The notes: a model not told the origin generated them from the letters alone. A DNA stretch of 64,000 nt from an uncultured Gemmatimonadales bacterium (GCA_963779755.1 CAVZZO010000001.1:768001-832000); one strand, 5' to 3'. Numbered from the stretch's first letter, positions 52,498-54,903 are shown. Made by a program: numbers and translations.

Positions 52498-54903
52498 TCA
52501 GGGCTGGGCCAGCCCCACGAACACCTGGGTGGTCGCCTCCGGGATTACCCAGACCACGTCGTCGCGGCCATCGGCGTCGACTTTCTCGATGAAGACCTCC
52601 CCACCGTTGAAGCTGGCCGCGGCCGGAACAACTTGCCCAACCGGCGACACGGCCGGCACGCCGGATGCATCGGAGATGCCGCTGCGGACGAAGGCCGAAT
52701 CGGCGGTGAGTTTGACCCAGATCATGTCCGCGCGACCGTCCCCGTTCAGGTCCCCCGTCATGGGGGCGAAGTTCTCCACCGCATGTCCCGGATTGATGAC
52801 GCCCAGCTGGCTGAACCCACCCGAGCCGTCGCCCTGGAACCTGTGCATGTACACGCCGCTCCCGCTGCTTGGCAGGTTCCAGTAGATATCGGTGACCTGG
52901 TCGCCGTTGAAGTCTCCCACGACGGGCTGGTAGGTATCCCAGCAGCAGCTCGTGGAGTTGTCCCTGGCCGGCTGGAACGTGAGCCCGGCGCCGCCCGCCT
53001 GGGTGATGGCGGCATAGGTACGGTTGGTCAGGTGCACCGGAACATTGTTCCAGATGAGGTCCATCCGGTTGTCGCGGTTCACGTCGGCGAAGAACATGTG
53101 ATACCCGCTCCAGCCTCCCTGCGGCGGCGAGAACGGTCCGTGCACGGAGAAAGTCCCGTCCCGGTTCGAAATCCCGATGTAGGTGACGTTCGTGGCGCCG
53201 AGGAAATTCCATACCAGGTCGCCCGCTCCATCGCCGTCCATGTCGGCCGGGTCGGCCAGCTTGTAGCCGGTCCAGTTCCCGGTCAGCACCGTGTCCACCG
53301 GATCGAAGGAAAATCCGCCGCCGCCCTGGGAGCGCGCCACGTACACTTCGTTAGCGTTGCTGGCCAGGTGATTCCAGACCAGGTCGGCCTCGCCGTCGCC
53401 GGTCACATCGCCCACGTTCAGGGTGTAATTGGCCCACCCTTCGCTCGGCGCGGGCTGCGTGCTGCTGTACACGCTCGGCGCGCCGAAGACGCCGGTGGCG
53501 CCCGCCAGGCTTACCGCCACCTGGTTGGTCGCGGGGCTGCGGTAGTTCCAGATCAGGTCCGAGCGGCCGTCGCCATTGACGTCGGCCAGCTTCATCTCGT
53601 AGGGTGAGGGCACCGGGGCCGTGATGTTCTGGCCGGTGAGGAACTTCAGCTGCCCGGCCACATTGGACAGCTCCTGGCAGGTGCGCCGCGTATAGTTGGT
53701 GGTCTCGGTAACGTCGGCTTCGTGGTTGTCCGCCAGGTTGGTGAACGTGTACGACAGCGGCTTGGCGGTAGAGAGCGGTGCGCTGACCGTGAAGTAGCTG
53801 CGCCAGTCGCCGCTCCGGATCATGGCCGCCGTGGCCGAATCGGCGCCGCCCAGAGAGAAAACCTCGATCTCCGACTCGCTCAGGACGTTCTTCTGCCGGG
53901 CGGACAGGCTCGCGGCGGCGCCATTGCCCAGGGCATTGTAGCTCAGCTGCACGATGCCCTTGAGCTCCGACTCGCTGGCGTTGGCCTTGAGGGTGAACAT
54001 CATCATCCTGCCGTAGACGACCCTGCTCACGTAGATCGGCAGGTTGGCCGGCCCCATCCGCTTGAGGTCTACCTGCTGCTGGAGCTTGTCCGGCGTGAAC
54101 GCGCTGGTGAACCAGCCACCGGGCGTCGACGGAGGCGCCACCACCACCTCGTACATCTTCTGGAGAAACTGCACGCTCACCATGCTCTGCTGGCCATGGG
54201 TATTGCTGTTCACCTGGGTTCGCGCCTTCCAGCCCAGATAGCGCCCGGAGAGGCCCGCCTTGAGGGCGAACTCCTGCTCCGACCGGTAGGCGTCCATCCG
54301 GAAAAAGGTGGTGCTGCCGGTATTGAGGCTGTCGATGACGGCGTTCCCGATCATGTCCCCGATGGCCGAGGCGACCGCGCTCTGGTTCACGTTGCTCACC
54401 GTCCGGAAGTTGGCGCCGGTCGGCAGGCTGGGGATGGAGACGTTGATCGGCGCCCGCTCGTCGATGACCAGTGGCAGCACCGAGCCGGAGCCGTCGCGGT
54501 GGCTCGCGCCCTGGATGAAAGCCCCGGGCCAGAGGTAGGCCTCGTTGGGACTGTACATGACCAGATCCTGCGGCGTGCGGGTCGCGGAATAGGGGACGTC
54601 CTCGCAGGCGTAGACGACGTTGTGCTGTACCGCGAAGGAATCCGGCGTACTGGTGGGCGTGCTGTCGGCCGCAATGGTGTCCTGGCTGAAGGTGACCTGC
54701 CCCGTCTCCACCGAATCCACATCCGGAAGCGTGGGCGAAAACGTCGCCCAGCCGGGCAGGCCTTGCAGATAGGTGTTTGCGTCCGACGACCCGCCGCCCC
54801 CGGGTCCGGTGCTGCCGGAGTCCTTGGCGCCGCATCCGGCGACCAGCATGAGCACGAAGGCGATGCCACCCGATGTCCGGGCGGCTCGGCTGAGGCGAGG
54901 CAT
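52498..54903 (-). CDS. Thiol-activated-cytolysin (CDC-like) lipoprotein with C-terminal FG-GAP beta-propeller
   Basis: LVAGC lipobox; LWPGAFIQG, FLQKMYEV, YVSRVVYGR, LGG, PLSYT (CDC core); seven DxD/NGDGxxD-like repeats; GGAGG SD before ATG 54903. Confidence 0.85.
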   Translation of the reverse strand: MPRLSRAARTSGGIAFVLMLVAGCGAKDSGSTGPGGGGSSDANTYLQGLPGWATFSPTLPDVDSVETGQVTFSQDTIAADSTPTSTPDSFAVQHNVVYACEDVPYSATRTPQDLVMYSPNEAYLWPGAFIQGASHRDGSGSVLPLVIDERAPINVSIPSLPTGANFRTVSNVNQSAVASAIGDMIGNAVIDSLNTGSTTFFRMDAYRSEQEFALKAGLSGRYLGWKARTQVNSNTHGQQSMVSVQFLQKMYEVVVAPPSTPGGWFTSAFTPDKLQQQVDLKRMGPANLPIYVSRVVYGRMMMFTLKANASESELKGIVQLSYNALGNGAAASLSARQKNVLSESEIEVFSLGGADSATAAMIRSGDWRSYFTVSAPLSTAKPLSYTFTNLADNHEADVTETTNYTRRTCQELSNVAGQLKFLTGQNITAPVPSPYEMKLADVNGDGRSDLIWNYRSPATNQVAVSLAGATGVFGAPSVYSSTQPAPSEGWANYTLNVGDVTGDGEADLVWNHLASNANEVYVARSQGGGGFSFDPVDTVLTGNWTGYKLADPADMDGDGAGDLVWNFLGATNVTYIGISNRDGTFSVHGPFSPPQGGWSGYHMFFADVNRDNRMDLIWNNVPVHLTNRTYAAITQAGGAGLTFQPARDNSTSCCWDTYQPVVGDFNGDQVTDIYWNLPSSGSGVYMHRFQGDGSGGFSQLGVINPGHAVENFAPMTGDLNGDGRADMIWVKLTADSAFVRSGISDASGVPAVSPVGQVVPAAASFNGGEVFIEKVDADGRDDVVWVIPEATTQVFVGLAQP

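Follow-up and report, generated by a model that had tools for sequence, protein, structure and literature searches.

A lipoprotein that joins a cholesterol-dependent cytolysin core to a seven-bladed FG-GAP propeller, encoded beside an ECF43-type sigma factor and kinase in an uncultured Gemmatimonadales bacterium

Introduction

What does a gene do that joins the core of a cholesterol-dependent cytolysin (CDC) to an FG-GAP propeller, does its product act alone and what switches it on? The question is raised by a 64,000-nucleotide stretch of DNA from an uncultured Gemmatimonadales bacterium (GCA_963779755.1 CAVZZO010000001.1:768001-832000; the window is this whole stretch), which encodes such a lipoprotein on its minus strand at 52498..54903. 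Among CDC-like (CDCL) proteins, only two-component Bacteroidota pairs have been studied so far, and the passages of the cited papers covered here say nothing on their regulation. That CDCLs carry diverse binding domains is already in print (PMC7527733, discussion). A search of openly available paper texts found no paper on a CDC/MACPF fusion with an FG-GAP propeller, nor on control of such genes by ECF43, a type of extracytoplasmic function (ECF) sigma factor. The architecture is already annotated in databases; its linkage to a sigma factor and a kinase is new here and had not been seen in an earlier note made from the sequence alone.

The gene and its product

The coding sequence, which ends with a TGA stop at 52498-52500, was defined from its open reading frame (ORF), its Pfam matches and its start context. 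The enclosing ORF covers 52498..54960 (minus strand, 820 aa). The ATG at 54903 is the likely start because GGAGGG lies 6-11 nt 5' of it and a conserved promoter, described below, puts the ATG at 54960 within the leader; the coordinates given in the earlier note were thereby borne out, and the product is 801 aa long. A protein in a public collection (P0002) is 100% identical to it, and the window DNA is GC-rich (0.65-0.71).

Three parts make up the protein: the tether, the domain 1-3 core of a CDC and, where domain 4 would stand, a seven-bladed FG-GAP propeller. AlphaFold models were built separately for residues 25-434 (the core half) and residues 435-801 (the propeller). Conservation was read from an alignment (A1) of 117 sequences, comprising the window protein and 116 of 120 listed homologues; the identical P0002 and the partial P0010, P0038 and P0047 were left out.

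A lipid-anchored N-terminus and a CDC domain 1-3 core

The core (residues 45-434; 53602..54771, minus strand) was matched by PF01289 (Thiol_cytolysin) over residues 106-409, with E 3.2e-24 and 85.9 bits against a Pfam cut-off of 25. The HMMER check proposed in the earlier note thus matched both this family and the FG-GAP families (PF13517, FG-GAP_3, E 4.8e-32; PF01839, FG-GAP, E 7.5e-19). All of the CDC core motifs that the note had listed were present (WPGA at 125, YVSRVVYGR at 291, GG at 352-353 and PLSYT at 382), along with YLxxLPSW and an M-Y...YGR arrangement. The absence of the undecapeptide was confirmed, with a best ungapped match of 3/11, and Pfam found no domain-4 family in the protein at E <= 1. 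Cys100 and Cys409 are invariant in the family and may form a disulfide. Y297-G298-R299 and G352-G353 are invariant in 117/117 members, and this YGR and GG motif has been tied to the switch from prepore to pore (Evans et al., PMC7527733).

By sequence and by predicted fold, the core resembles the classical CDCs more closely than it does the two-component CDCLs of Bacteroidota, which had been taken earlier as its comparison group. A search with the single sequence gave anthrolysin O (ALO) at E 5e-17 and a CDCL at 3e-6. With a core profile (A5, 60 sequences), the classical CDCs among the PDB sequences were matched at 1.2e-33 to 4e-22 (ALO 1.2e-33; perfringolysin O, PFO, 1.2e-29) and CDCL-short at 6e-16; the whole-protein profile from A1 gave CDCL-long at E 1.3e-8. 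The PFO profile alignment spans PFO 79-397 without large gaps and ends at 397, with an identity of only ~20%. When the model of residues 25-434 (pLDDT 77.4, pTM 0.77) was compared using Foldseek, PFO ranked first (E 1.7e-22, TMq 0.64, 387 columns); all of the classical CDC monomers stood above the CDCLs (E ~1e-12, TMq 0.49-0.54), and these stood above the MACPF proteins (E 8e-5 or worse).

In the model the central sheet holds strands 198-206, 240-256, 289-307 and 345-351, in the numbering of the window protein. Two regions correspond to the transmembrane hairpins (TMH) of the classical toxins, using what we take to be the limits of these regions in PFO. TMH1 (residues 209-239; 54187..54279, minus strand) aligns with the TMH1 stretch of ALO and PFO, and TMH2 (residues 311-343; 53875..53973, minus strand) is modelled as two helices, 311-327 and 335-343 (model residues 287-303 and 311-319). 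Both are of full length and alternate in hydropathy, their family-averaged period-2 signal lying within the top 5% of sequence windows. The fold check suggested earlier therefore recovered the CDC domain 1-3 fold, both hairpin regions and a two-helix TMH2, while TMH1 came out only partly helical and at low confidence.

The protein begins with a lipoprotein signal, MPRLSRAARTSGGIAFVLMLVAG followed by C, as the earlier note had claimed. The signal peptide (residues 1-24; 54832..54903, minus strand) carries the lipobox LVAG before Cys24, which is kept in 117/117 members of A1, a lipobox-like tetrad being present in 105/117. It is followed by a G/P/S/D-rich tether (residues 25-44; 54772..54831, minus strand), which is 15-26 aa long across the family and modelled with pLDDT < 50 at model residues 1-8 and 11-13. 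A conserved YLxxLPSWxxFSP motif with an invariant W52 comes next, followed by a T/V/D/P-rich segment of near-fixed length in the family (34-40 aa).

An S/T-rich stretch (residues 75-90) had been proposed as a free N-terminal linker and as the site of activation. The free linker was not borne out: the segment is conserved in length and AlphaFold models it as a beta-hairpin (strands 71-83 and 90-109, with a turn of moderate confidence). The true tether is residues 25-44. The CDCLs of Bacteroides and Elizabethkingia are cleaved after T-R or T-K at residues 62-87, in their counterpart of the beta-tongue (PMC11169675). Between K27 and R109 the window protein lacks both K and R, and 82/117 family members have one in segment 58-93. 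Because the stretch is modelled as a hairpin within a segment of conserved length, without K or R from K27 to R109, activation of the window protein by proteolysis is possible but unsupported and would be pure conjecture.

A seven-bladed propeller in place of domain 4

The C-terminal 367 aa (residues 435-801; 52501..53601, minus strand) form an FG-GAP/VCBS propeller. The AlphaFold model, built with an alignment of 48 sequences (A3), has a pLDDT of 94.4, a pTM of 0.91 and 28 strands, i.e. seven blades of four, which together with the Pfam matches upholds the seven-bladed propeller claimed earlier. All seven of the Ca-type repeats listed in the earlier note were found in the translation, the seventh with K for the first D, and the D-x-N-x-D-x-x-x-D motif is kept in 93-116 of 117 members, depending on the blade. 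Four inter-blade segments carry (G/E)-G-W-x-x-Y, the tryptophans being conserved in 112 (W490), 102 (W544), 112 (W598) and 101 (W655) of the 117 sequences. A vicinal Cys-Cys pair at residues 653-654 (52942-52947), present in 57/117 relatives, stands just before Trp655 in the fourth of these pocket segments and might form a vicinal disulfide at a binding pocket.

The propeller had been called integrin-like, and integrins proved to be distant kin. A phmmer search of the PDB sequences with the single propeller sequence gave 0 matches, and relatives surfaced only with profile A3: UmbA4 (9oee) at 1.5e-36, the lectins AAL2 at 1e-18, PAL at 3e-18 and PVL at 5e-18, CRTAC1 at 6e-11 and integrin alpha at ~2e-6. 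Foldseek with the propeller model gave 9oee at 6e-12 (TMq 0.62), PVL at 1e-9, AAL2 with a TMq of 0.67 and integrins at ~5e-6. The entry 9oee was deposited as a 'secreted esterase' and is described in Foldseek as UmbA4 bound to Streptomyces griseus teichuronic acid.

In UmbA4 the canonical pockets of the C-terminal propeller bind teichuronic acid, and it is this lectin that gives umbrella toxins their species specificity (Cell 2025, PMC13274773). PVL-type lectins bind GlcNAc or sialic-acid glycans, and the pocket of AAL2 consists of Asn104, Gly110-Gly111-Trp112 and His117 (PMC4483166). It is therefore likely, given this kinship with UmbA4 and the fungal lectins, that the propeller has a glycan ligand. 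The lectin or adhesin role that the earlier note had given it is plausible on the same grounds, save for the pocket residues of AAL2, which are taken up with the other points against such a role below.

A widespread family with interchangeable heads

The architecture is not unique and is found in at least 282 protein clusters. A word-indexed search gave 282 clusters at E <= 0.001, and all of the 120 that were listed carry PF01289 and FG-GAP families and are nearly all 785-840 aa long, under source names that include 'thiol-activated cytolysin family protein' and 'FG-GAP-like repeat-containing protein'. An exhaustive search with the core only gave 2034 representatives, 309 of them at E <= 1e-30. 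Of 150 that were listed, 69 were scanned for domains: 34 had FG-GAP, 7 had another named family and 28 had PF01289 only, some of these last being fragments. The seven other heads were Ricin-B, C-type lectin, Laminin B, Laminin G_3 (two), PD40 and PKD with SLH; PD40 and one Laminin G_3 were N-terminal to the core and the remaining named domains C-terminal. On a quick tree of 68 cores, from which two partial rows were dropped, the clades with other heads were nested among FG-GAP clades, and the FG-GAP label changed 11 times, at least six of these changes being forced by supported branches. In the Atlas, Bacteroidota clusters of 96 and 149 members combine MACPF (PF01823) with FG-GAP_3, the same head on the other branch of the superfamily.

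Relatives are encoded in 153 stretches of species-level genomes. The 80 loci retained for analysis belong to Bacteroidota (27), Gemmatimonadota (19), Balneolota (10), Rhodothermota (8), Calditrichota (5), Deinococcota (3) and others, and all 80 records listed are metagenome-assembled genomes (MAGs). The closest relatives are from Gemmatimonadales, at 66-76% identity. One carrier has been cultured, Rhodohalobacter mucosus (P0094, 40% identical), and through it the claims made here can be tested at the bench. The supplement text of Evans et al. 2020 has another Rhodohalobacter CDCL and no FG-GAP type. A tblastn search against plasmids gave 54 partial matches, 0 of them covering >= 80% of the protein. 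In several MAGs (L020, L049, L030, L044, L007, L066 and L078) the cytolysin gene or its tandem paralogue is interrupted by frameshifts or an internal stop, which may reflect assembly errors or decay.

The earlier statement that no second CDCL flanks the gene was confirmed within the window. Pfam found no other PF01289 in 36 window ORFs (chosen by third-position GC from ORFs >= 100 aa), and a family hidden Markov model run over all six-frame ORFs >= 100 aa in the 64 kb matched only this gene. Being solo is, however, no exception: with the same family model, 67/80 related loci also have no second CDC-like gene and 13/80 have one in tandem. L078 was considered as a fourteenth tandem case and rejected, as its second match is a frameshift piece of the same gene. 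Among Bacteroidota, 821 genomes with a single PF01289 gene have been reported (PMC11169675). Where the second genes are intact, their products are not short forms but full-length lipoproteins, either with a C-terminal region of their own or as tandem copies: that of L039 has Laminin G_3, L036 and L062 carry FG-GAP copies in tandem, and for the remainder Pfam gave no match in the C-terminal region.

An ECF43-type sigma factor and a kinase beside the gene

Divergent from the cytolysin gene lies a sigma factor gene (55141..55713, plus strand; probable start ATG 55159), the product of which matches TIGR02999 at 217.5 bits against a cut-off of 126 and carries HTLQTTALV. A Hanks-type Ser/Thr kinase gene (55738..58275, plus strand) starts 25 nt past the sigma stop; its product has a single transmembrane helix and TPR repeats at the C-terminus. 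An anti-sigma factor was not seen. ECF43 sigma factors are defined by the kinase encoded next to them and by QTTA standing where the acidic sigma-2.2 motif would be, the Thr of QTTA being the phospho-site (PMC13147305, PMC8999054), and on its sequence and gene order the window sigma factor is of this type. A perfect repeat, AGGACTG x 4.3 (55706-55735), spans the sigma stop codon and stops 3 nt short of the start codon of the kinase gene; its copy number might vary, or it could affect translational coupling.

The pairing recurs across the family. When the ORFs of the 80 loci were clustered, the commonest neighbours by far were the kinase, in 35 loci, and the sigma factor, in 32. An ECF factor, a kinase or both were present in 37/80 loci, and in 22/31 of those with >= 5 kb on both sides. 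The nearest such gene was <= 500 nt away in 25/37 loci, against 7.9% expected from uniform placement (nominal P 2e-19, the loci not being independent). Among 37 neighbouring ECF ORFs, 16 had QTTA and 28 had Thr at the third position. The orientation of these genes varies among loci, which argues for a regulon rather than one operon.

A candidate ECF-type promoter, TGAGGGAAC-N14-CGCT (54964..54990, minus strand), lies 86 nt before the ATG of the cytolysin gene. At Gemmatimonadota loci TGAGGGRAY-N14-CGCY occurs 86-134 nt 5' of the start codon. Over the 80 loci the strict pattern gave 13 matches, five before cytolysin genes, six before an operon of the cytolysin gene with a further lipoprotein gene and two before kinase genes; the window adds one. 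In Balneolota and allies there is a second class, TTCGCCA-N15-TGCGCGT, with 21 matches: ten stand 95-117 nt before cytolysin starts, nine before kinase or other CDC-like genes and one before a gene for a small FG-GAP protein, and one (L030 +16041) has no ORF >= 80 aa behind it. TGCGCGT alone was found in 13/62 upstream regions against 1.03 expected. As judged from these sequences, the cytolysin genes, their paralogues and the kinase genes have in common a conserved upstream promoter that is not of the sigma-70 type. A consensus scan of 52300-55200 found neither a sigma-70-like promoter nor a T-tract terminator.

The further lipoprotein of that operon (gene X, ~670 aa) is encoded directly 5' of the cytolysin gene, with a shared promoter, at six Gemmatimonadota loci (L015 7876-9894, L020 7955-9955, L051 6393-, L021, L022 and L034). 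Its domains are Big_5 and PKD, and its C-terminal part is long and rich in Gly; no homologue was found in the window.

Between promoter and start codon lies a 5' leader (54904..54960, minus strand; dG -31.7, z -2.7) with a conserved CACCCC element and a hairpin. In the window and in the upstream regions of L001, L003, L004, L036 and L048, the leader keeps an invariant CACCCC and, further on, GGGGTGC, which are able to pair. A consensus fold from only 7 sequences gave five pairs with one compensatory change, and Rfam matched no family in the window. Behind the stop codon a stem-loop (52395..52497, minus strand; dG -53.2 kcal/mol, z -5.3) without a T tract is likely the terminator. A repeat, CTTACGC x 6.3 with 81% matches (52427-52478), lies inside this stem-loop, between the cytolysin gene and the next gene.

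What the protein may do

Likenesses to known systems bear on function. With the classical CDCs (perfringolysin O, anthrolysin O, intermedilysin and pneumolysin) the window protein shares the domain 1-3 fold, YGR with GG and an equal length of TMH1 and TMH2, and both are presumed to be one-component. Unlike them, it has the 367-aa propeller and lacks domain 4, the undecapeptide and the cholesterol motif, and it is a lipoprotein of a Gram-negative-type organism whereas they are secreted Gram-positive toxins. It fits the definition of a CDCL given by Evans et al. 2020, having YGR and a glycine pair, no undecapeptide or cholesterol motif and a divergent C-terminal domain. The CDCLs of Elizabethkingia and Bacteroides fragilis (long and short) are alike in belonging to the F/Y-F/Y-Xn-YGR and GG motif family, in their lipoprotein signal, in having no undecapeptide and in their variable C-terminal binding domain (PMC7527733, PMC11169675). 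They differ in that the window protein has no adjacent short partner and no adjacent immunity lipoprotein, and has neither Arg nor Lys where CDCLs are cut for activation. Nor does the locus have the adjacent paired genes of the two-component CDCL systems (Abrahamsen et al. 2024), there being one CDC-like ORF in 64 kb.

The BSAP MACPF toxins of Bacteroidales resemble it in another way: they have a lipidated Cys, a disordered tether, a pore module and a C-terminal domain, which in BSAPs alone sets receptor specificity, and they are one-component (PMC12853789). Their pore module is MACPF, whereas that of the window protein belongs to the CDC branch, and their C-terminal fold is different. UmbA4, PVL, AAL2 and PAL share the VCBS/FG-GAP blade repeat, Ca-type loops and a G-W motif in the pocket-forming segment, and the propeller of UmbA4 serves to aim an antibacterial toxin. 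The control genes are most like EcfK-PknS of Xanthomonas citri and EcfP-PknT of Vibrio parahaemolyticus, which also consist of a TIGR02999-type sigma factor with QTTA and an adjacent kinase with one transmembrane helix, no anti-sigma factor being seen. In the window, unlike in these systems, the output would be a CDC-type lipoprotein and the extracytoplasmic part of the kinase consists of TPR repeats; phosphorylation here is assumed by analogy.

On balance we lean towards reading the protein as an inducible, one-component, glycan-targeted and lipid-anchored pore-former of the CDC branch of the MACPF/CDC superfamily, and hold this to be somewhat probable, since its anatomy resembles that of the BSAP toxins, its core that of one-component CDCs, its head UmbA4 and its control EcfK/PknS. 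We infer that it forms pores, depends on Ca, binds glycans and is exposed at the surface. The kinase would sense an envelope or extracellular cue and phosphorylate the Thr of QTTA in the sigma factor, which would then transcribe the cytolysin gene from its ECF-type promoter. The lipoprotein would be exported to the cell surface or to vesicles, where the propeller could bind a glycan on the surface of a target cell via pockets between its blades; the CDC cores would then oligomerise edge to edge, with TMH1 and TMH2 unfurling into a beta-barrel. Our committed guess, by analogy with UmbA4, BSAPs and Bacteroides CDCLs, is that the target would be a surface glycopolymer of a competing microbe.

Several findings weigh against this reading. 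In the core, TMH1 was modelled as a short helix (209-215) and coil, with pLDDT < 50 at residues 225-236. The first aromatic of F/Y-F/Y-Xn-YGR is a Met, the window protein having M-Y and the family consensus being M-F; this aromatic is conserved in just 62% of CDCLs (Evans et al., PMC7527733). In the propeller, the Asn/Asp that AAL2 needs for GlcNAc has no evident counterpart as read from the profile alignment; its His is not evidently kept either, and the window protein has W-x-x-Y. The UmbA4 propeller, a subunit of its own within a multiprotein particle, has six blades against seven here. In the control region, a loose form of the promoter pattern was found 2 times in the window against 1.88 expected and is thus not rarer than chance, its weight coming only from a conserved position in loci of common ancestry. 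The motif has no copy at the sigma/kinase operon of the window itself, and 43/80 loci show no ECF or kinase gene, many of these being short contigs. Finally, no conserved immunity gene was found beside the family in the 80 loci, a poor fit with a toxin aimed at close kin.

The target could instead be eukaryotic. With the same mechanism, the protein would then serve as an anti-predator or lytic-feeding weapon against a grazing protist or an alga, addressed to surface glycans rather than to cholesterol. The classical CDCs, to which the core bears the closest likeness, attack eukaryotic membranes, the lack of a conserved immunity gene is as such a weapon would have it, and sister clades carry Ricin-B and C-type lectin domains; moreover, PVL-type lectins bind GlcNAc and sialic-acid glycans (PMC4483166), and the EcfK/PknS pair of Xanthomonas citri turns on an anti-amoeba type VI system (PMC13147305). 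Other cues also act on ECF43 modules, however, for instance polymyxin in Vibrio (PMC8999054). Those relatives from Gram-negative Bacteroidota that have been tested, the CDCLs and BSAPs, act against bacteria (PMC11169675, PMC12853789), and the nearest solved relative of the propeller binds a bacterial wall polymer (PMC13274773). We think a eukaryotic target unlikely.

Two further explanations depart from the one-component toxin itself. The protein might be one half of a multi-component system, a membrane-binding platform like CDCL-long or C5b-8, nucleating another CDC-like protein whose gene lies elsewhere in the genome. The characterised Bacteroidota CDCLs do act in pairs, which may also be of similar size (PMC11169675), and the tandem second lipoprotein genes of 13/80 loci point the same way, those of L025, L030 and L044 carrying the same ECF-type promoter. 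Yet the second gene is missing from the window and from 67/80 loci, the intact second genes encode full-length proteins with C-terminal regions of their own, and neither CDCL component is as close to the core as the one-component classical CDCs are, which makes this account quite improbable to us. The protein might also be no toxin at all but a surface lipoprotein of a stress regulon, with the propeller used for adhesion or sensing and a non-lytic CDC fold used in envelope remodelling or vesicle formation. The regulons of ECF sigma factors are often envelope-stress responses, and the poor model of TMH1 would suit a non-lytic fold; but both hairpin regions keep their length and amphipathic pattern, and, as polymorphic toxins do, the family exchanges its C-terminal targeting modules while the core stays constant. 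We regard a non-toxin as very unlikely.

If the inducible, glycan-targeted, one-component reading is extended to the family, these proteins would be widespread environmental membrane-attack weapons of the Fibrobacterota-Chlorobiota-Bacteroidota group and its neighbours. Such weapons would combine a constant lipid-tethered CDC core with interchangeable lectin heads (propeller, Ricin-B, C-type lectin or Laminin-G) in a dedicated regulon of phospho-activated ECF43 sigma factors, deployment being set by a TPR receptor kinase. We offer this extension tentatively; if true, it would describe a sensor-triggered, glycan-addressed, single-component bacterial counterpart of complement or perforin. The family is a one-gene version with a core close to the classical toxins, and the ECF43/kinase pair and a defined promoter offer a regulatory handle on it. 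The search for a receptor is made tractable by the ligand complexes solved for the propeller fold (UmbA4, PVL and AAL2). For ECF43 modules, the outputs of which are known in few organisms, the family would add a conserved target gene across at least five phyla.

Other genes around the cytolysin

A 264-aa membrane protein encoded downstream of the cytolysin gene has no Pfam or NCBIfam family; it was considered as a partner or immunity candidate and rejected, having no link to the cytolysin family. Homologues of the window's other flanking genes were not found beside the relatives.

At 12 loci without the sigma factor/kinase pair, a TPR-rich protein is encoded next to the cytolysin gene or within ~3 kb of it (L017, L018, L019, L027, L038, L039, L046, L047, L052, L063, L073 and L075). 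These proteins are usually ~630-650 aa long, that of L075 being a BTAD/NB-ARC/TPR regulator, and the TPR part of the window kinase shows only a generic likeness to them (26%, E 5e-5).

The window also encodes two more ECF-like sigma factors with a SnoaL_2 C-terminal extension and two MacB_PCD/FtsX permeases, one of double length (46662-47720, plus strand; 49954-50841, 22926-25406 and 43909-45168, minus strand). Such sigma factors and permeases are typical of Gemmatimonadota- and Acidobacteriota-like genomes.

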